Below, in pieces: positions 6,639 through 57,473 of a stretch of DNA of 64,000 nucleotides. The notes beneath the pieces are model-generated. The model did no database searches, was not told where the DNA came from, and was given only the letters and a program-made list of their open reading frames with translations. Position 1 is the stretch's first letter. The number at the start of each line of letters is the position of its first letter. The translations under genes were made by a program, and so were the position numbers. Origin of the DNA: a virus. Lineage: Duplodnaviria > Caudoviricetes. Location: positions 11,233 to 75,232 of IMG/VR virus record IMGVR_UViG_3300020576_003089. The stretch is one strand, 5' to 3'.

Positions 6639-7174
6639 AATCTTTCTTGAACAATTCCTAATTTTTCTGAACGTGTATAATGAGCTGATACTATAATTGA
6701 TAATGAATTACCAAAATTGTTTGTATTATTTGAATATGAATATGAAGGGTCTTTACCTACAAATAATTGGTTTTCTACTATTGTGTCTATTTCATAATAA
6801 TCTTCATTCCATAAAATAACATCTCCTATTTCAGGTACTATATTATATGTAAATCCTTTTCCATCCTGGTTTAATTCTGTACTTAAGCTTAATCCAGCTA
6901 AATCATCTCTTAAAAATCTAAATTTAACATCTCTATTTATATCTACACCTTCTTCACCTGAACTAGCGTTTTGTTCTCCTCTATCAATTAAACAATTTAA
7001 TAATACAGGATCATTATATGTTTTTTTACCATTGCTTTCTCCATATATATTTGAATCAGTTTGTTCTAGTGATAATTTGTAAAATCCACACTTTTGTTCA
7101 ATTATATTATTTAATAGTTCTCTATTAATATGTCTTATAAATGATATGTCTCTATTTTCTCCGTATAAACTCAT
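6635..7174 (-). CDS. Head closure / neck protein (T4 gp14-like)
   Basis: ELLNNIIEQKCGFYKL...NIYGES...GDVILW...YEI pattern; synteny gp13-gp14-gp15. Confidence 0.65.
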   Translation of the reverse strand: MSLYGENRDISFIRHINRELLNNIIEQKCGFYKLSLEQTDSNIYGESNGKKTYNDPVLLNCLIDRGEQNASSGEEGVDINRDVKFRFLRDDLAGLSLSTELNQDGKGFTYNIVPEIGDVILWNEDYYEIDTIVENQLFVGKDPSYSYSNNTNNFGNSLSIIVSAHYTRSEKLGIVQERL

Positions 7175-7533
7175 TGTTGTGTTATTATTTGAGGATGTTC
7201 ATTATTTTCAAATTTAATATATTTAAAAGGTATAAATATATTATAATATTGATCATGATTAATAAAATTATTTTTGAATTTATAAACTTTAATTAAATTT
7301 TGACAATATTTATCTTGTTTTTCTTCTTGAGAACTAATAGGACATCTAAGTACGTTTTTATAGGTATTATTTTCTTCATCTAACTCTACATATCCAACAC
7401 AACCTGTATTTTTACTAAAAAATACATCATACATTATATATTCATTTTCTATATATTCCTCTAATTTAACAGTTGCAACTGGATTAGGATTATTTATCCC
7501 TAATTCATTTAATATATTTATTAACTTTATCAA
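7171..7533 (-). CDS. LNE-leader cassette protein
   Basis: Starts MIKLINILNELGINNP; ATGA overlap with neighbour. Confidence 0.75.
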   Translation of the reverse strand: MIKLINILNELGINNPNPVATVKLEEYIENEYIMYDVFFSKNTGCVGYVELDEENNTYKNVLRCPISSQEEKQDKYCQNLIKVYKFKNNFINHDQYYNIFIPFKYIKFENNEHPQIITQQ

Positions 7534-10073: not shown

Positions 10074-11690
10074 TTATACTGTTTCTAATCCTTCAACGAA
10101 GATTCTTGCATAATAATCAGGTCTGATCATTTTCTTAGCATATCTTGTCATTAACCCTTTACGAGGAGTAAATGTGTTTGGATCATATAATAATGGAGTC
10201 ATTATTAATGGCACATAAGGAGCAAATACAGCACCACATTCTAAGAATTGTGAACCTTTGTAACCCATTAATATAACATTTTCAGTCATATATGGATTTT
10301 TGTACACTTTATAACGGCTGTTTAATTGACCTATTTTTTGTACTCCAAAGTTAAATGTATCTTTTTCACCATCTCCATCAGTTGCAAAACCAGGAATTGA
10401 TTCTAATACAGTGCATATTGCTGGAGAACATACCATGAAATTAGCACCACCTCTTAATGATAATTGGTGAATTTTATTAGATACTTTTTGTAATTTAGTA
10501 CCTAATGTTGAGAACCATCCACCTTGTGCATTATAATAACCACCTGTTGTAGCTGATTGTTGAGTAAACCCAGCACCATTCCATACATTGTTATTTCTTG
10601 CTGACCAATAATCAGTAGTAAATGCATTTTGGATTAACATATCTAACAATTCTAAATCAATTTCCATTGAAATATATTGAGATAAGATACCTGTTAATTC
10701 TGCTTCAGCATCAACACTTTGATAAGCATTTAAATCTTGAGCAAATTCAGGAGTCCATTGTGCTTTTAATTTACGAGTTTTAGCAACAATTGGTTCTGAT
10801 TTTAATTGAACATTAATTTCAGGAATAACAATTGGGTTAGCTTGAGATAAAGTACCTTCATTTTCAAAATCACCACGAGCTGCTGGAGTAGGTTGAACAC
10901 TATAGAACATAGTATAGTTAGCACCTGATGGTAAAACTGTAGCTACAGATGAACCAGTTATAATAAATACAAATGTACCATTAGTATTGTTATAAGTAGT
11001 AAATTGTTGTAAAATGTCTGATGCTACTACAAATGAACCAGTTGAAGCAACAAATGATCTAACAGCGTTTGCATCCATAGAAGCAGTAATAGCATTAGCT
11101 ACAATTGTAACTTTTTTCAATGATGCCGTGTTATAAGTTGAATCATAGTTAATATCAGCCCATGTTACAGAACCTGAAGTACCAGTTAAACCTGATGCTG
11201 TAAACGGATTAATTGAATAATTAAAACGTCCTGCTTCATATAATGAAGAAGTAGCATTTATATCTGTTACATTTGTTGTAGGATTAGCACTATAAAGAGA
11301 ATCACCTGCTCTAAATGGAGATATACTATTACCATATTTAAAATCTAAGTAAAATACTAGACCTGATGGTAAGTTCATTGGTTGAACAGAAATAAATTCT
11401 TTAGCTGCTATATCACCAAATACTCTACGTACTAATGGTAATGCTACACCAGCCCAGTTTTCAGAATTATAACCACCACCACTCATACTATTTGTACCAC
11501 CACCAACGTTGGTTTCTACAATTAATTGTTTAGCTTGGTTTTCAAGTAACATTGACATTGTGTTTCTTTCAGTGTCATTTCTTATACCTTCTAAAAGGCC
11601 AGATTTAACCCATTTTGAGGCTAATCTTTTTGAGTCTTCTTGAATCACTTTAAATGTGTTTGATGATTCAAGTAATTGTTGTATATTCAT
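10074..11690 (-). CDS. Major capsid protein (T4 gp23-like)
   Basis: KW..SGLLEG, MLLENQ, LVRR.FG.IAA....SVQPMNLPSGLVF, AKTRKLKAQWTPEFAQDL, AELTGILS..I..EID, APYVPL, KGLMTRY. Confidence 0.97.
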   Translation of the reverse strand: MNIQQLLESSNTFKVIQEDSKRLASKWVKSGLLEGIRNDTERNTMSMLLENQAKQLIVETNVGGGTNSMSGGGYNSENWAGVALPLVRRVFGDIAAKEFISVQPMNLPSGLVFYLDFKYGNSISPFRAGDSLYSANPTTNVTDINATSSLYEAGRFNYSINPFTASGLTGTSGSVTWADINYDSTYNTASLKKVTIVANAITASMDANAVRSFVASTGSFVVASDILQQFTTYNNTNGTFVFIITGSSVATVLPSGANYTMFYSVQPTPAARGDFENEGTLSQANPIVIPEINVQLKSEPIVAKTRKLKAQWTPEFAQDLNAYQSVDAEAELTGILSQYISMEIDLELLDMLIQNAFTTDYWSARNNNVWNGAGFTQQSATTGGYYNAQGGWFSTLGTKLQKVSNKIHQLSLRGGANFMVCSPAICTVLESIPGFATDGDGEKDTFNFGVQKIGQLNSRYKVYKNPYMTENVILMGYKGSQFLECGAVFAPYVPLIMTPLLYDPNTFTPRKGLMTRYAKKMIRPDYYARIFVEGLETV

Positions 11691-11727: not shown

Positions 11728-12771
11728 TTATTTAATACCTGCTAATACTTGCATTCTTAAAAGACTATCATTAACTTCTAAAATTGGTTTTCTTTGAGAC
11801 ATTCCTGCTGGTTTTGAAGCAAATCCTAAGTTTTCTTTTATAGTTGATTTTTTATTAGGATTAACAGGATTTAATATATTAGAATTTAAAGATTCAAATA
11901 TTAATTTAACTTCTTTTACATTAGTAGCTCTATCAAATGATGAAATAACTTTTAATTTTTGTCCTTCATTTAAATTTTTAGCTTTAAATATTTTATTTAC
12001 ATAAAGTAATTTAGCGTTTAATAAATTAATTTCATTAATTTCAGTACGTAAAACTTTAACAGCTTTATATGCTTCGTTTAATTTTCTTTTTAATATTTTA
12101 TTTTCATTTAAACCAGAATTTGAAACATTTGATGGTTGAACCATATCATCTAATTCTCTTAATATTTCATCAATATCAAATTCATCTTCATCTTCACTAC
12201 CAGGCATTCCACCACCTAAATCATCTCCCATGTTATCCATTCCCATTTCTCCACCTAAATCGTCTCCCATTCCACCATCTAAATCATCTCCCATTCCTAA
12301 ATCGTCTCCCATTTCTCCACCTAAATCTTCAGTTCCAGTACTCATTTCTTGACTTACTACTGATTGAATAAGTGTTGTAAATTCTTCAACTGTTAAATTT
12401 GATAATTTTTCATCTGATTTATCATCTTCATCTTTCTCTGAACCTGTTTTTTCTTTAGGTTTAGATGGTTTTGATGGTGATTTATCATCTGATTTTTTAT
12501 CTGATTTTTTGTCTTTATCTTTGTCATCATTATCATCTTCACTTTCATTTAAATCGTCTTCTAATTCTTGTAGGATTGAAGAAAGATCTACATCTTCTTC
12601 TAATTCGTCATTTCCGAATTCATCCATTTCATTTAATTTTCTAGACATCATTTTTTCAAGTTTAGGTTTTAATGTTTCTTCCAAAGCATTTTTAGCATTT
12701 ATTAATGCAGTTTCACGAATCATTTTTGCATCAGCAATTGCATCTTGCAATACATTATTGTTTTTTGACAT
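11728..12771 (-). CDS. Prohead scaffold / core protein (T4 gp22-like)
   Basis: Directly upstream of capsid gene; acidic, low complexity, coiled-coil C-half; many [IL]xE sites; ends LLRMQVLAGIK. Confidence 0.85.
   Translation of the reverse strand: MSKNNNVLQDAIADAKMIRETALINAKNALEETLKPKLEKMMSRKLNEMDEFGNDELEEDVDLSSILQELEDDLNESEDDNDDKDKDKKSDKKSDDKSPSKPSKPKEKTGSEKDEDDKSDEKLSNLTVEEFTTLIQSVVSQEMSTGTEDLGGEMGDDLGMGDDLDGGMGDDLGGEMGMDNMGDDLGGGMPGSEDEDEFDIDEILRELDDMVQPSNVSNSGLNENKILKRKLNEAYKAVKVLRTEINEINLLNAKLLYVNKIFKAKNLNEGQKLKVISSFDRATNVKEVKLIFESLNSNILNPVNPNKKSTIKENLGFASKPAGMSQRKPILEVNDSLLRMQVLAGIK
12214..12327. repeat. Imperfect tandem repeats encoding GDDLGG(E)M
   Basis: Repeated cctaaatc[ag]tctcccat units inside the scaffold gene. 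Confidence 0.75.
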
Positions 12772-12903: not shown

Positions 12904-12932
12904 AAAAAGAAACGTTTCTTTTTAGAAACGTT
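12904..12932 (-). terminator. Putative terminator / palindrome downstream of protease and cassette
   Basis: Minus strand AAACGTTTCT-AAAA-AGAAACGTTT-CTTTTT. Confidence 0.55.
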
Positions 12933-13192
12933 TAATTATTCATTATTTGTTTTAATTCTCTGTAAATTTTTTCTAAATCTGATTGAGAAAATAAATCAAA
13001 ATCATATGTTTCTAACCAATCATCACTAATATTATATTTTTTTATATATGGTTTACATATTTTTAAATATGAATTCCAATGATTGTTCCACTTAGGTATT
13101 GATATTGAATTCCAATACTCTTTTACCTTTGCTAAATTTATATTAGGATTATTAATGTCGAGTTCAGATATAAGAGACATTAACTTTAACAT
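12932..13192 (-). CDS. LNE-leader cassette protein (SQxDL module family)
   Basis: MLKLMSLISELDINNP (start moved to 13192); ends FSQSDLEKIYRELKQ. Confidence 0.75.
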   Translation of the reverse strand: MLKLMSLISELDINNPNINLAKVKEYWNSISIPKWNNHWNSYLKICKPYIKKYNISDDWLETYDFDLFSQSDLEKIYRELKQIMNN

Positions 13193-13803
13193 AATGCACA
13201 CACACCGGTTTGGTTACAAATAATATCTGTAATTATATTATTAATTTTACTATATTTAGTATCTGAAATATGATTTAAATTTTCATTTAATTTATATTGA
13301 TAAGCATTATTTGTAGATGGGGTTGAAACTAAATCAGCACATAATAAATCAAAATCATCTTGTACTTCTACAGTATTTTCACTTACTTGTTTAACGGAAC
13401 CCATTCCTCTAGTTGATATACCTAATGGAATATTATTAGATGCAATTTCTTGTGCTATTCTGCCTGATGGAGTATTTAGTAATTCTATTTCAGCCATTAC
13501 ATTATTACCTTCCCACCATATTTTAGTAATTAAATGAGAAACATTATTTAAATTAATAACTGATGAATCGGGATGATCTAATTCACCTAATGCTGTTCTA
13601 TTTTTAACAGGGCCTTCATTATATTTATTAAATTCTCTTTCTAATATAGCTTTAGGATATTTACGACCATTTCCATTTTCAGCCTCTGCTTCCTGTATTT
13701 TACCTCTAACACGCATACGACCATTTCCTCCAGCTTTAGATTCATTTATAGTTGAATCTATACTAAAGTTAAATGGGATTGTGTCTATTAATAATTCTTT
13801 CAT
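13186..13803 (-). CDS. Prohead core protease (T4 gp21-like)
   Basis: NGNGRKYPK, ALGELDHP, VSHLI, NTPSG, GISTRGMGS, DLVSTPS. Confidence 0.95.
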   Translation of the reverse strand: MKELLIDTIPFNFSIDSTINESKAGGNGRMRVRGKIQEAEAENGNGRKYPKAILEREFNKYNEGPVKNRTALGELDHPDSSVINLNNVSHLITKIWWEGNNVMAEIELLNTPSGRIAQEIASNNIPLGISTRGMGSVKQVSENTVEVQDDFDLLCADLVSTPSTNNAYQYKLNENLNHISDTKYSKINNIITDIICNQTGVCALC

Positions 13804-15885: not shown

Positions 15886-17175
15886 TTATAATCCTTTGAT
15901 TTTATTGTTAAGTGTTTCCACTAATTCTTGTATTTTGTTAATTGATTGTTTTGTTTTATCCCAATATTGAACACCTTCTTCATTTTCACTTAATTCTTGT
16001 TTCATTCTATTCATATATTCAACAATTCTATCCACTTCTTGGAGTTTTGATTTAACTGTTTTGATACCTTTATGAAGCATTTCATTTTTACTTCTGAATT
16101 TTACTTCTTTTTTAAATTGACCATATGATGCTTCTTTTAATATCATGTTTTGAATAAGTTTATTAAGTTTTGATTCGTTTATATTATTACGTACTAACAA
16201 ATATGCTTTATATATTTGATTTTTATTATTTTCTAAATATGTTTTTAATTTTTGTATTGTACCATGTATGTTTCCTGATGTTAAATCTAAATTAAATTCT
16301 TTTGATATTAAACTAAATTTATCTGGATCTTTTACACATATTCTTAGTATATCTTGAATGCTTGGAATTTTATTTATACCTAATTCATTTATTGAATCTT
16401 GTTTAAATGAATTATAAGCACTGTTTCTCCAAGTCATTAAAATATTTCTAATATTTTTATCTTCAGGTAAAGCTGAAGCATTTGATACTTCAAACCATTT
16501 ATTTAATTCAACAGGTCTTTTATGTAGTATTGTATTTAATACTGAATCAGATGTGTTATTTGAAGCTCCAAATTCACCATGTTTATTAAGTAACATAGCT
16601 AAACGTTCAGCTGCTTTAGTTACTTCAGGTGTTTCTTCTATTTCGGATTCATATAAAGGAACATTCATGTCTTTATTCACATCAGTTTTGTTTGGATTTT
16701 GAATAACCCAACCATCACTTGATTTAGACATTATTAATGGTAAAGATAAAAAACCATTACCTAATACTTTTGTATTAGCAGCATATTTTTTAATTAAACC
16801 TCTAACTTGTTGTGGTACTCTTTCTTTTAAAAACAATGTTAATTTACCTAAACTTTGTTCTTTTGCAAATGAACTTCTACCTCTTTCAATATTATCTAAT
16901 GCTGTTTTAACTAATGGATCTATCATTAATATAGATTCACCTTTTGAATTAGTTGCTATTTTAAAATATATTTTTGGTTCTTGAGCAAATCCAAACCCAA
17001 TTGGTTTTAATAATGATTCTGGAAATTCAAATTCATTAGGAACAAAACGTCTGCCTTTTTTTAATGGTATAGCTTCTTTAAACAATTTTGGTGTTGCAGT
17101 AGTTTCTCCAGGACTAGTTATGTTCCCTTCTTCTTCAAGAATTTCTTTTAATATTTTTGCTATTATTTTACTCAT
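15886..17175 (-). CDS. Multi-module putative head-internal protein
   Basis: Amphipathic N-helix ending LKE/LEE; internal INELGINK and INESKLNKLIQNMILKEA; C-terminal coiled coil. Confidence 0.65.
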   Translation of the reverse strand: MSKIIAKILKEILEEEGNITSPGETTATPKLFKEAIPLKKGRRFVPNEFEFPESLLKPIGFGFAQEPKIYFKIATNSKGESILMIDPLVKTALDNIERGRSSFAKEQSLGKLTLFLKERVPQQVRGLIKKYAANTKVLGNGFLSLPLIMSKSSDGWVIQNPNKTDVNKDMNVPLYESEIEETPEVTKAAERLAMLLNKHGEFGASNNTSDSVLNTILHKRPVELNKWFEVSNASALPEDKNIRNILMTWRNSAYNSFKQDSINELGINKIPSIQDILRICVKDPDKFSLISKEFNLDLTSGNIHGTIQKLKTYLENNKNQIYKAYLLVRNNINESKLNKLIQNMILKEASYGQFKKEVKFRSKNEMLHKGIKTVKSKLQEVDRIVEYMNRMKQELSENEEGVQYWDKTKQSINKIQELVETLNNKIKGL

Positions 17176-18050: not shown

Positions 18051-19946
18051 TTAGATATTTTCTTCCTTAATATTAGATTCATTTAACAATTCTGATTCTG
18101 ATTCTTGTTCTTGTTCAAATATTAATGTTTTTTTAAATTGTGATGGCAAAGATGATTTAATTTTATAAAGTTCTTGTAATGCTTTATTACTAACTAAATC
18201 CATAGTTGAACTATTTTCACCCTTTCCTAATCTATCACGTCCTAATGGATCTTGCTGTGTGTTTATCATAGATGCTTTTTCAATAGGGCGTCCAATAGGT
18301 GATTTTTCATCATAACCAGCTGGAACATCACCATTTGTATTCATTCCTGTTCTACCCTTACCATATAATGATGCTAAATCGTGTGGTGTACCAAATGATT
18401 TACCTGAACGTAATGGATCATTCCCTTCATTTTCTATCTGAGCTAATCTAAATTCACGTTTTTTATCTTCAATAACTAAATCACGGTGTTCATCATATTG
18501 ATCTTCACTAAATTCAAACACATTGTTATAAATCCAATCAGATGGTAATAATTTACTATCTATTACATCTTTAGCTAATTGAATTTTTTCTTTCCATAAT
18601 GCTACTTTTTCTTGTTCATATACTATTGATGGAGTAGTTAATGATAATTCAAAATTAGTTAATGTAGCACCATCATATCCTTGAGTATATAAATGTATTA
18701 ATGCTATTTTATATAATTCTGATATAACTATACGTTGGATGCGTTCAATTGTACGAGCAAATCTAATATCTTCAGCAGCAAGTGTTGCTTTTCCTGTTAA
18801 ATCTTTTTCAAAACCAAAAAATGCTTTAGGCACTTTTAATGCTGATAACATTTCATCTCTTAAAAAATTAACATCCTCAATAGCATTATATTCTAATCCT
18901 TTTAATGTATCTATTTTAGTTGATTGATCATTACCTCTAACAGGGATATAAAAATCCTCCATTAAATTCATCATGTTATATTTTAAGTTATATTCACCAG
19001 TTGATTGATCTATAAAAGGTGTTTTTTTAACTTTTTGTTGTAATTTTTGCATGTATGAATCTACTTCATGTGATGGTAAATTTCCTACATTTACTGTAAA
19101 TACACGTTTTTCAGGGGCTCTAGATATACGATGTAGTAACATCGCATCTTTCATTAATGAGTATTGTTTAAATGTTTTACGAGCTCCTTCTAAATAACTT
19201 TTTCCATATGGTAAATAATTGGCATCTGCTAGTAATCTAAAATGAGCTATTTCATAATTTTGAAATTCCATTTTACCATCTCTTGAATTGCTACCTATCA
19301 TTCCTAACCCCGCTACTGCTAATGATTGAGGATCTATTCTAAATGTAGTTTTAGGTACTTTTCTAACATCAACACTATCATCTAATCCTTCTTCACGAGT
19401 CATTTCATATGTTGATAATGGCATTACATTAAATACACCAAATTTTTCTGCTATTTCTAATTTAAGATAAAAATCACCATATTTACACATATTTCTAATC
19501 CATAACCATAAATTAAATTCAATATTTAAAACATCATAAAATAAATTATATAAAATTTGTTGTACATTTTCATCACTTGATCTAATTTGTAAGATTTCTC
19601 TCATTTCATTTTTTAAAGTAGATTCATCTGCTATGATATCTAAAGCTGAACTTATAATAGGTTCAGTATCCATTACTTCATAATCAGCATATAGCTGTGT
19701 ACGAAGTGTTTGAATATTCATTGTTGGATTATATGGATTAGTAGCTCCATATTTATGTAATTTAGAAAATCTATCTACTAATGAGTTAGTTCTGACATCA
19801 CCATATGATTGAGTTTTATCAAAATCATTTACTTTTAGTTGTTTACCACCAACGTTGCGTATTACAACATTTGTACTAAATATCTTCTCTAATTTATCAA
19901 ATACACCTTGTTTAGGTTGTTCTTGATTATTTGTATTTTCTGCCAT
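18051..19946 (-). CDS. Portal protein (T4 gp20-like)
   Basis: DYEVMD.EP.ISSALDIIADE, RNMCKYGDFY, IHR.SRAPEKRVF.VNVGNLP, EDFYIPVRG, IEDVNF. Confidence 0.96.
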   Translation of the reverse strand: MAENTNNQEQPKQGVFDKLEKIFSTNVVIRNVGGKQLKVNDFDKTQSYGDVRTNSLVDRFSKLHKYGATNPYNPTMNIQTLRTQLYADYEVMDTEPIISSALDIIADESTLKNEMREILQIRSSDENVQQILYNLFYDVLNIEFNLWLWIRNMCKYGDFYLKLEIAEKFGVFNVMPLSTYEMTREEGLDDSVDVRKVPKTTFRIDPQSLAVAGLGMIGSNSRDGKMEFQNYEIAHFRLLADANYLPYGKSYLEGARKTFKQYSLMKDAMLLHRISRAPEKRVFTVNVGNLPSHEVDSYMQKLQQKVKKTPFIDQSTGEYNLKYNMMNLMEDFYIPVRGNDQSTKIDTLKGLEYNAIEDVNFLRDEMLSALKVPKAFFGFEKDLTGKATLAAEDIRFARTIERIQRIVISELYKIALIHLYTQGYDGATLTNFELSLTTPSIVYEQEKVALWKEKIQLAKDVIDSKLLPSDWIYNNVFEFSEDQYDEHRDLVIEDKKREFRLAQIENEGNDPLRSGKSFGTPHDLASLYGKGRTGMNTNGDVPAGYDEKSPIGRPIEKASMINTQQDPLGRDRLGKGENSSTMDLVSNKALQELYKIKSSLPSQFKKTLIFEQEQESESELLNESNIKEENI

Positions 19947-25970: not shown

Positions 25971-25983
25971 AAGAATTTTGACT
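25971..25983 (-). promoter_or_regulatory. AGTCAAAATTCTT element (candidate early/middle promoter)
   Basis: Same 13-mer at 35507 and 38314, 12-mer variant at 45953, each about 17-32 bp upstream of a non-structural gene. Confidence 0.6.
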
Positions 25984-35572: not shown

Positions 35573-35849
35573 TCATTCTGAACCTGGACCTTCCATCCAT
35601 TCATTTTCATCTATTAATGATAAATTGTCAGATATAACTAAACCTCCACAATCATCTTCACTTCTCGTTATAATTATTTTAATATAATCTTCTCCATCAT
35701 CATTTTCTTCATCTCGGATTTGCCAATCTAATTCATCACTATTAGGATTTAAAATTCCAAAACCTGTTTTATTCATAATGAGTTCAAGATTTAATCTAAC
35801 CCAACTTTCACTAAATCCTGGTTTATTTACTTCTAATTCGTTTAATCAT
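35573..35849 (-). pseudogene. Frameshifted LNE-leader cassette
   Basis: ATG ATT AAA at 35849 is out of frame with TTA AAC GAA TTA GAA GTA AAT AAA CCA (LNELEVNKP), which runs in frame into ORF 35573..35776. Confidence 0.65.
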
Positions 35850-36720
35850 TTAAATCAGGTTCTGTCCATTTAATTATAATACTACCATATTCATCCGTTG
35901 AAACTTTAACTCTTTCTATAAGAGCTTCATGATCATTAAAAATTAATTTCTTTCCTTTTAAAAAGTTAAAGATTTTATTATATTCTTCTATTTGTTCATC
36001 ATCATCCCATAAATGATCTTCATTAAACTCATATTCAATATTTTTATCTTCTCCCATCATGTTATCTTCATAATATACATCTATAACGTTTCGGATATAT
36101 TTTTCAACTTCAGAACGAGTTAAAGGGTGATTTACTTCTAATTCATCTATTAGATCTTCGTCATCTTCCCATTTTTCATCATCATCATCATCGTCATCCC
36201 AATCATCTGATATTTCTAGCATTATTTCATATGCTCTTTTCAAAGCTAAATTTATTGAAGAATATTTTATAGGTTCTTTTATTGCGTTTCCAAAAGCATA
36301 ATATGCTTCTATTGTAAATCCATTTTCTTTTTTAATAATTTTAACATCATCTGTATGATTTTCATCATGACCATCCATAGGTGCTGAAAACCAATAAACA
36401 ATATCTTCTTTAATATCTTCAGGTTCTAATATAATTTCATCCCATCCTTCAGGAATTTTAACATTAGGATTACTTATTTCTAATTCGTTTAGTTGAATAC
36501 ATGCTAATTGTTGCATTCTTTTGATTTCATCAATTCCTGCTTTTTCTAAACGTGAATAATATTTAGGATCTTCTGCTAAATGATCTAATGCTATTTCTTT
36601 AGCAATTATTGAACTATTGGTATGTTCCATTTCATGTTTTATACCTTTTTTAAGTTCATTGTGGTCTACATTTTTAGGATTTAATTTATCTCCTTTTCCA
36701 CCTCGTAATTTATTTAACAT
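35842..36720 (-). CDS. DUF5661-like domain plus LNE-linked modules (polyprotein)
   Basis: GGKGDK...ELKKGIKHEMEH...EIALDHLAEDPKYYSRL; IDEIKRMQQLACIQLNELEISNP; LIDELEVNHP. Confidence 0.7.
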   Translation of the reverse strand: MLNKLRGGKGDKLNPKNVDHNELKKGIKHEMEHTNSSIIAKEIALDHLAEDPKYYSRLEKAGIDEIKRMQQLACIQLNELEISNPNVKIPEGWDEIILEPEDIKEDIVYWFSAPMDGHDENHTDDVKIIKKENGFTIEAYYAFGNAIKEPIKYSSINLALKRAYEIMLEISDDWDDDDDDDEKWEDDEDLIDELEVNHPLTRSEVEKYIRNVIDVYYEDNMMGEDKNIEYEFNEDHLWDDDEQIEEYNKIFNFLKGKKLIFNDHEALIERVKVSTDEYGSIIIKWTEPDLND

Positions 36721-40203: not shown

Positions 40204-40791
40204 TTACATACCCATTTTTTCTTTAATTTCCTTAACTCCTTCTCTAAATTGTTGAATTATTTTTTCTTTATCTATATTACCACCCATAATCTGTTCAATA
40301 TCACCATGTTCAGTTACATATGAATTATTATATCCATTAATAAATGTATCAAAAAATGCATTTTCTAAATCTTTTAAATAACCATTAACATTATCTTCTT
40401 TGATTTTACGTTGATATTCATCATATTTACCATCTCGCTTAAGTTCAGTTTCAAATTGAATAACGCAATCTAAACACATTTTATGAATACTATATAGTTT
40501 CTTATTTGAAGTTGAAGTACTCATTGGTTTATCACATTTAGGACATACTAAAGGTAATATAATTAATTGTTTTAATTCGTCAAATTTAGTCAAGGTTTGT
40601 TTTATTCCGTTTTGGAATATCCATTGTTTACCATTTTCCTCCCAAATTTCACCTTCTTTACGTTCTGTTATAGTATGGTTATAACCTACTTGCGTAGTAG
40701 TTTTATCATTTGTTTTTTTAGAAACAATATTACGCATTCGTTGCACATCACGTTTATTGAATTCTTTAATCAATTTTGAATCATTCGTCAT
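40204..40791 (-). CDS. Hypothetical protein with Zn finger
   Basis: KEGEIWEENGKQW; CPKC...CLDC; start moved to MTNDS at 40791. Confidence 0.65.
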   Translation of the reverse strand: MTNDSKLIKEFNKRDVQRMRNIVSKKTNDKTTTQVGYNHTITERKEGEIWEENGKQWIFQNGIKQTLTKFDELKQLIILPLVCPKCDKPMSTSTSNKKLYSIHKMCLDCVIQFETELKRDGKYDEYQRKIKEDNVNGYLKDLENAFFDTFINGYNNSYVTEHGDIEQIMGGNIDKEKIIQQFREGVKEIKEKMGM

Positions 40792-43483
40792 CTGAAAATA
40801 GTTTTTTAGGTATTTCATTGTTAATTGTTAATATTTTATTTACATCATTAGGATCATACATTACAATGTATTGACCTGATTGTTTTTCTTCTACTGCTTT
40901 ACGTGTTCTATGATTACCATCTATAAGTATTAATTCATTTTTATCATTTTCATCTTTAAAATTAGCTATTAACCCTAAAGGTTCATTATAATTTATATTA
41001 ATTTGATTATATTTTTTAGGATTAGCTTCTGAAAATTCAGGATGTGATAAAAAATGCATCACTTCAGGTGAATATGTTTTTATTTTAGTTTTTATATCAC
41101 CTTGTTTTATTAAGTTATATGCTTTAGATACATCAAATTTATAGCGACCATGATATGCTGAAAATGTTTCATTTTCTCTTTGTGATTCGTTAATATTAAC
41201 ATATTTTTTAACTAATTGTTTCATTTCACTATAAAAATTATTTAAATCTTGTTTAGATAATATTTTTAATCTTCTAGTTTCTAAATCTAAATTATATTTT
41301 TCACAATATTTATTTCTTATTTCTTCATATTCTTCCCAACCTTTACTATTACTTGCAAACTCCTTCCAATTCGAATAAATATTTTCATCATAATAATCAT
41401 ATATTTCTTCCCAAGATGGGTTAGGATTATTTATTTCAAGTTCATTAATTTTACTTTCAACTAGTTGAGTATAATATTCAGGATGCAATTTACCCCACTT
41501 TCTCATAACTAAACCTGCAAATGCGTTAGCTTCATTTTCATGTGGAGAACCATCTTCACCACTATTATCAGTTAATTCCTTATTTATATTTTGATGTAAA
41601 TGTTTCCATTCATGAGCAAGACTTCTCCAAGAATCCATTAAGTTTCTACCTTTAATATAAACTGTTATTTCATTATTATTTGGATCAAAATGAGCAAAAC
41701 TTGTAGTTTTAGACTTATCTTTAGTTAATTTAATGTTATATTTTTCTTTAATTGGTAATTCTTGTTGTAAGAATTTTATAAATTCTTTAAATGAATCTTT
41801 AATTGATTTTTTAGATTCATTTAATTTTTTATTTTTATTATTGTTATTAATATCTATTAACCCACTAGCATCATATCCCAATTCATTATTAGTAAAAAAT
41901 AAACCTCCATCTTCTAATTCATATTTTTCTATTCTATCAACATCAAAAATTATTACTTTACCTGTATGAGCAAAGGTATATAAATTTATAGTTCTAATTT
42001 TAATTTTATCTCCTATTTTAATATCATTAGGATTAAAATTAGGTATATATTTTGTAAAATCCCATTGTTTAGATGGTTTATTTATTCCTAATTCGTTTAA
42101 TTTTTTAATATTTTTAATATCAAACATTGATTCAATTTCATTAAAATCAATTAATCTTTTATCAAATTGTTTAGTAATTAAATTTTGGAATTTAATAAAG
42201 TCTACATTAAAATCAACAAATGTTGTTTTATAGTAATATAATATTCCTTCAGTTATACCTTCCCATAATATTAAAATAGGACTTAATGGATACCAATCGA
42301 CATATTCAAAATTTCCTATTATATATTCTAAGTCAATATATTTGAATAATTTGGGATTTATTTTAGCAAAATCTTTAAATAGTTGTTCTAATTCATCAAG
42401 ATTATTAATTGTTTTTTCATTCCATTGTTCTGGAATCTTTATATGAAATTTTAATGGTTCATTTATTTCTAACTCATTAATATCTTTTTTTTCTAAATCT
42501 TCTAAACATATTTTAGATTCATCCCACCATTTATTTACTATATCAATATGTCTTGTTTCATAAAAATTATGTAAATTTTCAAAAAACCATCTTAAAAGTA
42601 TTATTTTACTTGCTTTATCAATAGTTAAAGGAAATCTTATACCACCTGTTTCAGACATGTTTCTATTGTTTAATCTACCAATTTCTTTTTGTAATTTAAG
42701 ATTTATATTTTCAAAATAATTGGATAATTTTATAAAACCTTCCTCACTAGTTATATAATCAGGTTTAGTTGGTTTAACTATAGGAATGTATTTTTTTGGT
42801 TTTAATACTTCCAGTTCATTAATAGCATTAGATTTACGAATTTCTTCATCCTCATTATATGGGATACGTTCTCCACTTACATAATCTTCAAATGCTATAT
42901 CATCACTGTTTGGTATAGAAACACATTTCCAACCATTAGACCAATACCATCCTTCTTCTCCACCTATGGTTTCATCATCAGGTTCATATATTTTTTGCAA
43001 ATATTTATTTTCTTTCCAATTATCACCAGTCCACCATAATTTAATATCATATGTTTTACCTACTTGAGGTTTGCGTGGATTATTAATTTGTAGTTCGTTT
43101 AGTTCATTTTTATTTTTATATAATTTTAATCCAGCAAAAAATGAATATAAATCACTATAATTACATTTATATATAAATTCAAATCTATCATAAGCTATAT
43201 AAAAATGTTTATCATTCCAAACATCTATATAATCATTAATATTAGTTCCTTCTTCTTTATGTATTTGTTCTAATATTTCATGGAAAGCATTCTCAACATC
43301 ATCAAATGAATTAAATTGATTATATTCTACTAAAGGTAATAATTCATTATATAATTTATTCCATTTTTGACGTTCTAAATCAGGTTTAGGTTTATTAATC
43401 TGCAATTCATTTATTTCATCAGCTTCAAGAATTTGTTCCTTATGTAATTGTTTTGACCACCAGTCTTTACTAAATAATTTCAT
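40781..43483 (-). CDS. 900-aa polyprotein of LNE-linked modules including zincin peptidase and ParB/Srx-like domains
   Basis: Six [IL]NEL[EQG][IV]xxP linkers plus LNES and INES; AHEWKHLHQ...ENEAN; LIDGNHR. Confidence 0.8.
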   Translation of the reverse strand: MKLFSKDWWSKQLHKEQILEADEINELQINKPKPDLERQKWNKLYNELLPLVEYNQFNSFDDVENAFHEILEQIHKEEGTNINDYIDVWNDKHFYIAYDRFEFIYKCNYSDLYSFFAGLKLYKNKNELNELQINNPRKPQVGKTYDIKLWWTGDNWKENKYLQKIYEPDDETIGGEEGWYWSNGWKCVSIPNSDDIAFEDYVSGERIPYNEDEEIRKSNAINELEVLKPKKYIPIVKPTKPDYITSEEGFIKLSNYFENINLKLQKEIGRLNNRNMSETGGIRFPLTIDKASKIILLRWFFENLHNFYETRHIDIVNKWWDESKICLEDLEKKDINELEINEPLKFHIKIPEQWNEKTINNLDELEQLFKDFAKINPKLFKYIDLEYIIGNFEYVDWYPLSPILILWEGITEGILYYYKTTFVDFNVDFIKFQNLITKQFDKRLIDFNEIESMFDIKNIKKLNELGINKPSKQWDFTKYIPNFNPNDIKIGDKIKIRTINLYTFAHTGKVIIFDVDRIEKYELEDGGLFFTNNELGYDASGLIDINNNNKNKKLNESKKSIKDSFKEFIKFLQQELPIKEKYNIKLTKDKSKTTSFAHFDPNNNEITVYIKGRNLMDSWRSLAHEWKHLHQNINKELTDNSGEDGSPHENEANAFAGLVMRKWGKLHPEYYTQLVESKINELEINNPNPSWEEIYDYYDENIYSNWKEFASNSKGWEEYEEIRNKYCEKYNLDLETRRLKILSKQDLNNFYSEMKQLVKKYVNINESQRENETFSAYHGRYKFDVSKAYNLIKQGDIKTKIKTYSPEVMHFLSHPEFSEANPKKYNQININYNEPLGLIANFKDENDKNELILIDGNHRTRKAVEEKQSGQYIVMYDPNDVNKILTINNEIPKKLFSDDE

Positions 43484-52900: not shown

Positions 52901-53815
52901 TTTAATTTTATTATAAAAATTATTTAAACGTTTTTCAGCAGAACTAAATCTAATAAAATTTTCATAACTACTACTATAATTAACATTTATTTCTATTTCA
53001 GCTAAATTTATTTTATTTAAAATAGATTGAATAGATGAACCACTATAATTAGATAATAATGAGTTAGTAGATTCATACTTAGTAGGAGTAGTATTTTTTA
53101 TATCTAATTCAAGGTCAAAATTAGGACCTCTTAAGTTAGGTAAAGGATCAGCTAAAGTTTCACTAGTTAATATTAAATCAAAAATTGTAGAATTTGATAT
53201 TTCTTCTACAATACATAATGTACTATTTATATTTATATCATTAGATAAAGGTTCATATAATTTTACTAATATAAATCCATTATCCCAAGCAATATTTGTT
53301 ATTAATTTTACATTATTATTACCAAAATTTAATAAATATGGTTTTAAATAAGGTACTAAATTTTTATCATTATTTAATTTATTAAATTGATCTTGTAAAT
53401 TATTTATATTAACAGAAGATATTTTTAATTCAGTTCTGTCAGGTGATATTTCTTTTATAAATAATTCTAAATCTTGAGGATTTGAAATCCATTTTTTAAA
53501 AAAATTATATTGAGTTTTAAATTCACCAATTTCATAATATTGTTGTAAATCAAATAATGGATTTATTTCTAATGTTGAATATGTAGAATTATTGTTTAAT
53601 GAAGAACCTTGAGATGGTAACTTATATAAATTATAATTATAATCTAAATTTAATAAATTTAAAGCAGCATCATATATAATATATTCAATATAATCTACAT
53701 TTGGATTAAAATTATTAATTACATTTTGAGTACCAATTAGTAATACATCATTTTGATTAAAACGATTTATATCATTTGATAATTCTATATTTCCTTTAAA
53801 TATTATTTGTGGCAT
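49901..53815 (-). CDS. Large baseplate wedge protein (gp7/P2 gpI-like domain)
   Basis: 1304 aa; FIDMIGHYFD...RIYHNIPLLFKGKGS...ELITTFGI...IKEYGG. Confidence 0.65.
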   Translation of the reverse strand: MPQIIFKGNIELSNDINRFNQNDVLLIGTQNVINNFNPNVDYIEYIIYDAALNLLNLDYNYNLYKLPSQGSSLNNNSTYSTLEINPLFDLQQYYEIGEFKTQYNFFKKWISNPQDLELFIKEISPDRTELKISSVNINNLQDQFNKLNNDKNLVPYLKPYLLNFGNNNVKLITNIAWDNGFILVKLYEPLSNDININSTLCIVEEISNSTIFDLILTSETLADPLPNLRGPNFDLELDIKNTTPTKYESTNSLLSNYSGSSIQSILNKINLAEIEINVNYSSSYENFIRFSSAEKRLNNFYNKIKQIEDYNTFITQYSGSIQPNILVQVGQYSSSINDIIIKFDGYENYLYFNSGSSTWPKSNINPPYVLESTGSINTLTWFSSSIDSSIYYDNNNPNKLSDAIPEYIAIDENNEPYINFIDMIGHYFDNIWIYIKSITDYYKSYNNVDNGISKDLVFFALQDLGIKLYNTKEDDDLYNYIIGNNGVLSSQQLIAELYKRIYHNIPLLFKGKGSYKTIQELITTFGITGSILNIKEYGGNSNTEASLLDYSSNKIRIIDNSVYTASYGSILHPKIKLADDVYENYKNDDSRVDIAFSPQYPIDLIISASITSSNPNFSIDDYLGDPRYEISSSYYSLDQIRASAISSSFTTKYDIRGFIELSQCFDNTLFKMVKDYLPFKSNLSEGIIIKQQALERIKWKRNLPNIDNQTMYEASYSTASLNSDYDNFYYYLQNTKEPYYNGEISGSNKDLYGEFFIPNNFNPYALSSSLNLSLFQHSDYNVLLNNISASRLSNVRRKIEIQPYSSQNILVPTEIQDSNYYDTGLNRSRYNGTKLISALYNTYTDGDTSFGKSSTIDIIKNNVSYFTNIKQSSLLLANVSQLKLKYLINEQNNVLDLNNQNNNIVDIQNIFKSGENITISYFDSSGSIKPSNTNIEIYKGGYGIDTVLYNLGSSGYQNFELPNASDTIVSASYDLITSASITGIYLASYTIYQNGVLHSITGSSITNDLLPYVVTSNLFVFVSHSVYPTTKYHKLVNGNSELLANIQISASSPGPSSYAVASYDFVLGGSPHPIFGLNIDSSSFSLQGTHETNYCKHGGSIYMSTGYATGEEWLFPNGFTNYYQNSGSLPWKAAGSNRIVVFPKLISDNYGTFRYNTNLNTNVFDINYTNFTIDKGDKFLVYPIDYAIGLSANTQYHDRTYIFKEYNIINVYFTPFLGDNYLTIVVDQDLPNFTTGLPYNTDDKKYIPYYAVQKIVPDETSILLKSTNFSDSENQGIVYPQYVNEKLKVKSGDIIKNLKSQNLI

Positions 53816-54368
53816 ATTTTTTAACTAATTGTTTCATTTCATTATATAATTTGTTTAAATCTGATTGAGATAATTTTTGGTAATCATCTTTATACTTTGG
53901 GTTAGAAATATTATATTTATTTCTTATTTTTACATATCCTTCCCAACCTTTAGTACTTACACCAAATTCATTGTAATTATCCCAAATGTTTTGGATAAAA
54001 TAATCATATACTTCTTCAGCAGTTTTATTAGGATTATCAATTTCTAATTCAGCTAATACATCATCATCATTATCTGGATTGTATGGTAAATTGTATTTTT
54101 TAACTAATTGTTTTAATTCTCTATAAAATTTATTTAAATCGGGTTGAGATAATTTTTTAAAATTAGTTTTATCAAGACCATAGAACCATTGTTTTTGTGA
54201 ATAATAATTTTCAATCTTTTCATATTCTTCCCAACCTTTACTACCAGCACCAAATTCATTGTCATTATACAATATATTATTTCTATAATAATCATATACT
54301 TCTTCCCAAGATGGATTAGGATTGTTTATCTCAAGTTCGTTGATTATATTTAATAGTTTAATTTGCAT
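53796..54368 (-). CDS. LNE-leader protein with two tandem paralogous SQxDL modules
   Basis: IINELEINNP and LAELEIDNP, each followed by EEVYDY...KGWE.Y...LSQ.DLNK.Y.E.KQLVKKY. Confidence 0.8.
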   Translation of the reverse strand: MQIKLLNIINELEINNPNPSWEEVYDYYRNNILYNDNEFGAGSKGWEEYEKIENYYSQKQWFYGLDKTNFKKLSQPDLNKFYRELKQLVKKYNLPYNPDNDDDVLAELEIDNPNKTAEEVYDYFIQNIWDNYNEFGVSTKGWEGYVKIRNKYNISNPKYKDDYQKLSQSDLNKLYNEMKQLVKKYATNNI

Positions 54369-57170: not shown

Positions 57171-57473
57171 TTAATCATTTTCAATTAAATTTTGTCTAAT
57201 AAGATTAATATGAGCTCCTAATTCTTTTATATCTTTAACAGTTTGTGCTAAGTCTTTAGTTATTTTTTTAGCTAAGTTTTTAACATGTTCATTAGATGCT
57301 CCTTTAAATTTAGTCATATTACTATATACCTTATATATATTATTCATGTCTTTATTAAAACTTTCCATGTTGTATACTGTATTGGAAATTTTACCAGTAA
57401 TTGGGTCTACTTCATCAGGACCTAAAACATGTCCTTGTTTTATAAAATCATCTATGTTTAATTTATTTGCCAT
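57171..57473 (-). CDS. Hypothetical protein
   Basis: 100-aa ORF; ends LIEND. Confidence 0.6.
   Translation of the reverse strand: MANKLNIDDFIKQGHVLGPDEVDPITGKISNTVYNMESFNKDMNNIYKVYSNMTKFKGASNEHVKNLAKKITKDLAQTVKDIKELGAHINLIRQNLIEND

Follow-up and report, generated by a model that had tools for sequence, protein, structure and literature searches.

A 900-residue multi-module protein with a recurrent junction peptide in an uncultured T4-like phage: a candidate substrate of the head protease

This work concerns an open reading frame (ORF) of 900 codons at positions 40781..43483, minus strand, of a viral DNA stretch from IMG/VR record IMGVR_UViG_3300020576_003089. Its product reads as a chain of small modules joined by one recurrent nine-residue peptide, called the linker below. 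The window is the whole stretch analysed, 64,000 nucleotides (nt) long and covering positions 11,233 to 75,232 of the record; all coordinates are those of the window. The source is a 75.2-kb contig of about 25% G+C in which every gene lies on the minus strand. Judged by its sequence, the contig is a distant T4-like myovirus, uncultured and of freshwater. Strong PHROG matches were obtained for its capsid protein, portal, large terminase and head-maturation protease, its nearest cultured relative is Flavobacterium phage immuto (57% capsid protein identity), and DNA near-identical to it is found in riverine, aquatic, wastewater and sludge metagenomes.

The 900-residue ORF and its linker peptide

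The features of the ORF, in the order of the protein, are listed below (aa, amino acids; pLDDT, predicted local distance difference test score of the structural models).

40781..43483, minus strand: multi-module ORF, 900 aa, 107.7 kDa, ATG start, no internal stop
43406..43483, minus strand: N-terminal 26-residue peptide ending I-N-E, a candidate propeptide or targeting peptide; in 6 of 6 orthologues
43388..43414, minus strand: linker 1, residues 24-32, full motif
43094..43405, minus strand: unit 2, residues 27-130, module type M; helical in the model; no family match
43076..43102, minus strand: linker 2, residues 128-136, full motif
42815..43093, minus strand: unit 3, residues 131-223, module type E; elsewhere positioned in orthologues P0002, P0004 and P0007
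42797..42823, minus strand: linker 3, residues 221-229, full motif
42473..42814, minus strand: unit 4, residues 224-337, module type F
42455..42481, minus strand: linker 4, residues 335-343, full motif
42092..42472, minus strand: unit 5, residues 338-464, module type H; helical, pLDDT 66-80 in part
42074..42100, minus strand: linker 5, residues 462-470, full motif
41816..42091, minus strand: unit 6, residues 465-556, module type G; first module of P0007
41813..41824, minus strand: short junction L-N-E-S, residues 554-557, preceded by an N/K-rich stretch
41441..41815, minus strand: unit 7, residues 557-681, predicted zincin-like metallopeptidase with HExxH and downstream E
41423..41449, minus strand: linker 6, residues 679-687; pLDDT <50 between two confidently modelled units
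41186..41440, minus strand: unit 8, residues 682-766, module type A, the most widespread module
41183..41194, minus strand: short junction I-N-E-S, residues 764-767
40784..41185, minus strand: unit 9, residues 767-900, predicted ParB/Srx-like domain with invariant D-G-N-x-R

Six copies of the full motif, (I/L)NE-L-x-(I/V)-x-x-P (starting at residues 24, 128, 221, 335, 462 and 679), and two of the short form (I/L)NE-S (554 and 764) divide the ORF into pieces of 26, 104, 93, 114, 127, 92, 125, 85 and 134 aa. The eight modules (85-134 aa) have masses of 10.6-15.7 kDa each. A preliminary description of this DNA had proposed such an ORF, with these linkers and units of small size, and on both counts it proved correct. 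The tripeptide (I/L)NE occurs nine times in the ORF compared with 1.0 expected from composition (Poisson p ~1e-6), and across the proteome no other (I/L)xE tripeptide exceeds its expectation as strongly (69 copies compared with 27 expected).

The linker is not peculiar to this ORF. Within the window its core pattern was found in 25 copies, 24 of them on the coding strand, compared with 0-1 in 20 shuffles. Contig-wide there are 33 motif copies, every one on the coding strand and 32 in the frame of their own ORF. Seventeen form the N-terminal leader (about 10 residues) of small genes, with hydrophobic residues at positions 4 and 7, I or L at 8 and E at 10 (the last at exactly residue 10 in 13 of the 17). 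The other 16 are internal junctions of the 900-aa ORF and of the ORFs at 35842, 53796, 57463, 60218 and 62987, which had been named earlier as smaller examples and are indeed multi-module ORFs with the same linker. Numbering the (I/L)xE tripeptide as P3, P2 and P1, P3 is I or L and P1 is E in 33 of 33 copies, although the search pattern would have accepted V or M at P3 as well; P2 is variable (N, S, A, D, L).

At the conserved residues of the motif, synonymous codons are no less diverse than across the genome: all six Leu codons are used, AAC makes up 33% of Asn codons compared with 12% genome-wide, and both common Pro codons occur. Because synonymous codons vary freely at the motif, selection acts on the peptide and not on the DNA. 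A DNA-level element translated by chance, such as a recently duplicated stretch or a cassette with a role in regulation or recombination, would agree with the coincidence between the repeat and the break points of module exchange described below, but it is made exceedingly improbable by the codon variation and by the bias of the copies, 33 of 33 on the coding strand and 32 in the frame of their ORF, and this candidate was rejected. Scanning the linker DNA pattern against IMG/VR gave no match, and scanning it against genome contigs gave single chance matches only and no hint of a host.

Two loci are irregular. The copy at 35845 (minus strand) lies just past the stop of ORF 35842-36720, in another frame. 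The DNA of this locus (35776-35860, minus strand) shows an apparent 8-nt tandem duplication within the L-N-E codons. It would put the sequence out of frame and sever a downstream module of about 88 codons, leaving it only the internal ATG at 35776; the cause could be an assembly error, a programmed frameshift or a gene split of recent date. At the second locus, the ORF listed from ATG 7434 (7171-7533, minus strand) most likely begins at TTG 7533, which gives it a complete leader.

Identity and exchange of the modules

The preliminary description had assigned a zincin motif to one unit and a ParB/Srx-like motif to the last, and both assignments were upheld. In unit 7 the HExxH motif and the downstream E are invariant in 12 homologues (H624, E625, H628, E649/E651), and the model places strands at 583-609 followed by helices at 615-633 and 647-666. 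Searched alone, unit 7 matched Peptidase_M78 / IrrE-like (PF06114) below threshold (19.5 bits, cut-off 22, E 8.7e-4), and the top rows of its Foldseek search were all zincins (IrrE, selecase, Wss1), each weak (E >=0.19). By sequence and model, unit 7 is thus predicted to be a zincin-like metallopeptidase (MPTase) domain, with HExxH on one helix and the Glu on the next. Unit 9, modelled with 20 homologues at pLDDT 87.6, was compared with 48,161 chains; the 11 with Z >=2 all belong to the ParB/Srx superfamily, the best being sulfiredoxin (Z 5.6, root-mean-square deviation 3.5 over 82 residues), and the top Foldseek rows, although weak, fall in the same superfamily. Its D-G-N-H-R motif is invariant or nearly so among the 20 homologues (D89, G90, N91 and R93 invariant). 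Unit 9 is accordingly modelled as a ParB/Srx-fold domain, of a rare family represented by 19 clusters among 1.84 billion representatives.

For the other units, Pfam and PHROGs searches run per unit returned no significant family, the sub-threshold M78 match of unit 7 being the only hit; units 2-6 and 8 had no match there, and an ESM Atlas search of units 5 and 8 gave no usable match. A profile of the 12 homologues had no match among PDB sequences, no unit matched the T4 IPI-III or Alt families in PHROGs or Pfam, and an ADP-ribosyltransferase (ART) domain was not found in the 900-aa ORF. As to whether the linkers might be buried inside one fold, the unit 7/8 linker is predicted to be unstructured: residues 672-687 have pLDDT <50 and both flanking units are confidently modelled. 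It is the sole linker that can be judged in the whole-ORF AlphaFold model (mean pLDDT 45, predicted template modelling score 0.26).

Six orthologues from other metagenomes (P0002-P0007) are 35-82% identical to the ORF over the alignment. The N-terminal peptide and the zincin unit are present in 6 of 6, the former kept even though the module next to it differs, and the last domain is present in 5 of 6; in each locus fetched, the orthologue gene follows primase and exonuclease genes. Module order is compared below, with letters for BLAST-defined module types.

900-aa ORF: B-M-E-F-H-G-C-A-D
orthologue: B-N-E-F-H-G-C-A-I-D
orthologue: B-A-F-J-H-C-A-D
orthologue: B-E-F-J-O-G-C-A-D
orthologue: B-K-K-C-D
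orthologue: B-A-A-I-C-L-D
orthologue: B-G-P-E-C-A-L-I-Q

This comparison, suggested as a check in the preliminary description, revealed that modules between the anchors are permuted, swapped and duplicated, and that each change falls at a linker. When metagenome contigs were aligned to the ORF, 15 of 21 listed break points fell no more than 35 nt from a linker, in a zone that makes up 27.6% of the ORF (p 4e-5); in one contig exactly unit 8 (41197-41423) is replaced by 527 other bases. Unit 8 also has paralogues at 12932, at 57463, upstream of the window and, in two copies, in the following gene, to whose modules one unit had been likened beforehand.

53796..54368, minus strand: leader and two tandem A modules, paralogues of unit 8

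In agreement with that claim, these two modules share 62% and 52% identity with unit 8 (residues 682-766), whose module type forms tandem arrays in other low-GC contigs.

Some orthologues provide information about what such modules could do. In P0005 (606 aa), two variable modules are Imm5 immunity-protein domains (Pfam E 1.7e-13); by their sequence they are compatible with counter-defence cargo and hint at neutralisation of host toxins. The C-terminal module of P0007 (L005:12053-12676, 208 aa) stands in place of the ParB-like domain and carries an R ... S-x-S ... E-x-E pattern that resembles ADP-ribosyltransferases (cf. T4 Alt); Pfam gave no match for this module. Outside the clade, two proteins of other large phages that combine a zincin with an Fe-Mn superoxide dismutase (P0018 and P0021) are near-identical up to K-K-K-L-N-E after the dismutase and unrelated thereafter, and from this pair (I/L)NE junctions may mark module swaps outside this clade as well.

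The head protease and the case for processing

Two head proteins of the phage bear on the linker.

13186..13803, minus strand: prohead protease, T4 gp21-type, the proposed cutting enzyme; (I/L)NE at residues 19 and 172
11728..12771, minus strand: head scaffolding protein; six (I/L)NE sites

The protease belongs to Pfam Peptidase_S77 (PF03420, E 2.4e-27, above cut-off), matches PHROG 207 (E 1e-52) and is 33% identical to T4 gp21; one (I/L)NE lies near each of its ends, flanking the core. The six sites in the scaffold compare with 0.39 expected (~15-fold, p 3.5e-6). Of the (I/L)NE-S form there are just six copies: two in the 900-aa ORF and one each in the scaffold, the protease, a neighbouring head-cluster protein and the portal C-terminus. 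In the capsid protein, I-V-E59 aligns with the T4 gp23 cut site L-T-E65. At the homologous scaffold and protease sites, three in all, P2 is Q or T in phage immuto and N in this phage. As immuto has Q/T there, lacks the linker motif and has no (I/L)NE excess, the head-core sites and the linkers appear to share a lineage-specific P2; the missing motif also makes immuto unusable as an experimental proxy.

Three more head or tail proteins carry such sites. The portal (18051-19946, minus strand) has L-N-E-S ten residues before its C-terminus, and an unannotated 429-aa head-cluster protein (15886-17175, minus strand) has a full linker-like site at residue 262 and I-N-E-S at residue 332; both are processing candidates. 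A tape-measure-like protein of 806 aa, encoded upstream of the window (ORF -4915..-2495, minus strand), has three (I/L)NE compared with 0.9 expected, one of them linker-like.

T4 gp21 cuts after L/I-X-E, and in the ten-residue T4 capsid targeting sequence (CTS) positions 4 and 7 serve targeting and 8 and 10 processing (PMC9026906). An Asp at position 10 of the T4 CTS prevents processing yet leaves targeting intact. We give a probability of roughly one half to the reading that the 900-aa ORF encodes a capsid cargo polyprotein cut by the phage head protease. It is favoured because an S77 protease is encoded, the linker fits the L/I-x-E rule, the tripeptide clusters in the scaffold and near both ends of the protease, the stand-alone genes bear a CTS-like 10-residue leader, and modules exchange exactly at the linker. 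The cut, the enzyme, the packaging and the injection are what we infer. A beads-on-a-string polyprotein would be incorporated in the prohead core, where the gp21-type serine protease would cut after Glu at each (I/L)-x-E junction. The cuts would free eight proteins of the masses given above, which would be retained in the head, enter the next host with the DNA and there probably act in counter-defence. The roughly 17 small genes with a leader would be the single-module version, their 10 residues being clipped off like the T4 CTS. Since the junction is common to all modules, in-frame recombination there could swap, permute and duplicate them.

The preliminary description had likewise proposed a capsid-packaged polyprotein cut into separate effectors. 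This is the best-supported reading, but several observations weigh against it, among them the setting of the gene and the zincin core kept in motif-less relatives. A gap of 11 nt separates the start of the ORF from the preceding exonuclease gene, and both belong to an endonuclease-primase-exonuclease island that lies outside the head cluster. Its positional orthologue in immuto (gp088) is an NMNAT-zincin fusion, and Synechococcus phage S-SRM01 (L057) has a stand-alone 132-aa homologue of the zincin unit beside a cytidyltransferase gene, the same zincin-NMNAT combination that is fused in immuto. Because both of these zincins lie among replication genes, an early cytoplasmic role of the conserved core is suggested, and modules with linkers may have been grafted onto such a core. 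The N-terminal peptide of the polyprotein (conserved, 23-26 residues, ending (I/L)NE) is unlike the common leader, so that a targeting role for it is a guess. The pattern L/I-x-E alone is loose, with about 1 match expected per 80 residues. The occurrence of (I/L)xE at junctions of distant homologues was dropped as support at that same expectation, only the rarer (I/L)NE being noteworthy. Moreover, conservation extends to six residues beyond the proposed cut, more than the T4 rule calls for, and for this reason the motif may act besides or instead of being cut. Finally, owing to the poor whole-ORF model, units 2-6 and most linkers cannot be judged structurally.

Some of these points would suit a polyvalent protein that stays uncut, in the cytoplasm or the virion, with the repeat as a flexible, recombination-prone joint derived from the leaders of fused cassettes. 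The place of the gene in the replication island agrees with it, as do linker-less relatives that hold the zincin and the last domain in one protein, the conserved residues after E that the T4 rule does not need, and the precedent of the N4 virion RNA polymerase, a polyvalent protein that is packaged unprocessed (PMC5512222). However, the internal copies retain (I/L)NE-L-x-(I/V) in orthologues only 35-42% identical overall, and since this core is kept while upstream leader residues are lost, the internal copies appear to be under selection themselves. The free module order argues that the modules do not need each other, and a mere joint leaves the (I/L)NE concentration in the scaffold and protease unexplained. 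We therefore hold an uncut protein to be unlikely, if still a serious alternative to the cargo polyprotein.

It is also conceivable that the polyprotein is cut by its own zincin, or by some protease other than that of the head, either ahead of packaging or once it has been injected. The HExxH...E signature of unit 7 is intact and invariant in 12 homologues, zincin folds lead the unit 7 structure search, and MPTase autoprocessing was proposed by Iyer et al. 2017, with DdrB of phage P1 (ParB-like + MPTase) processed before packaging (PMC5512222). Yet the zincin is equally conserved in motif-less lineages (immuto, P0010-12, P0025-28), about 25 other motif-bearing proteins have no zincin, and the head protease is favoured by the enrichment of the motif in the scaffold and protease sequences and by its fit to the gp21 rule. 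These observations leave processing by the zincin or another protease rather improbable.

Known systems and the gene neighbourhood

Polyprotein processing is a hallmark of RNA viruses and, to our knowledge, is not a described strategy of tailed phages. The cargo reading has its closest functional parallel in the T4 internal proteins IPI, IPII and IPIII and in Alt (PMC9026906, PMC3012670). As in T4, a gp21-family protease is encoded and the junctions obey L/I-x-E; the stand-alone genes have leaders of about 10 residues, and the payloads are diverse and fast-changing, some of them counter-defence-like. The resemblance is functional only, with no sequence homology. Unlike the T4 proteins, many modules are chained here in one ORF with internal sites, the motif extends for six residues beyond the proposed cut, the polyprotein starts with a peptide unlike the common leader and the gene lies outside the head cluster; the present system is known from sequence alone.

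The preliminary description had also placed the ORF among polyvalent proteins, citing zincin, ParB-like and ART domains as typical of them. The link is apt for the zincin, the ParB/Srx-like domain and the unrelated modules; the ART domain is the part that was not recovered. In polyvalent proteins a single phage polypeptide combines 2-15 domains of unrelated function (Iyer, Burroughs, Anand, de Souza and Aravind 2017, PMC5512222), and here there are eight modules of distinct types, including a zincin-like MPTase hub domain combined with a ParB/Srx-type domain as in P1 DdrB. Their delivery with the DNA and processing into units were predicted in that paper, in which the word "linker" has 0 occurrences. 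What differs here is the very small size of the modules and the presence of one 9-residue peptide at every junction, which also serves as the leader of single-module genes and fits the head protease rule, not a zincin site.

In the giant phages phiKZ, 201phi2-1 and SPN3US, head-internal proteins are cut by gp175/gp245 at S/A-x-E (PMC9026906, PMC5694885). These inner-body and ejection proteins are likewise cut after Glu by a gp21 homologue, at several sites each. In contrast to the ORF described here, propeptides are removed there from paralogous structural or ejection proteins, and there are no chains of unrelated portable modules with a fixed linker. Recombinant phiKZ gp175 is active in vitro, whereas T4 gp21 acts in the prohead. 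In the literature searched, no published description of a uniform junction peptide doubling as a leader was found.

More broadly, and with somewhat less confidence than for the 900-aa ORF itself, we suggest that in a low-GC freshwater T4-like clade the head protease could have become a polyprotein processor, with the 9-residue peptide acting as a removable capsid address on single-module genes, as the cut site within polyproteins and as an in-frame recombination joint by which modules move between genes and phages, and yielding a combinatorial injected arsenal. If this were true, T4-like phages would carry a capsid cargo that greatly exceeds the few T4 internal proteins in size and modularity. 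Injected early effectors of uncultured phages, and with them probable anti-defence proteins, could then be picked out by a simple sequence criterion, a leader or linker combined with the head protease rule. Like the T4 CTS, which already has this use, the linker would offer a natural portable tag to bring foreign proteins into phage heads. On a more speculative note, all products would begin with Leu, which destabilises bacterial proteins when it is N-terminal; the breakdown of the cargo inside the host could be timed in this way.

Regulatory signals around the 900-aa gene were sought as well. A sigma-70 and terminator scan stayed at chance level, with no signal separating the gene from its island, and the T4 late-promoter motif TATAAATA showed no enrichment, either on the coding strand or ahead of leader genes. 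The endonuclease-primase-exonuclease island is bounded by a recurring 13-mer, AGTCAAAATTCTT, which (with one variant) stands ahead of non-structural gene blocks at 25971, 35507, 38314 and 45952 (minus strand); its statistics are modest, with 4 matches compared with 1.24 expected and 2 of 100 shuffles reaching 4.

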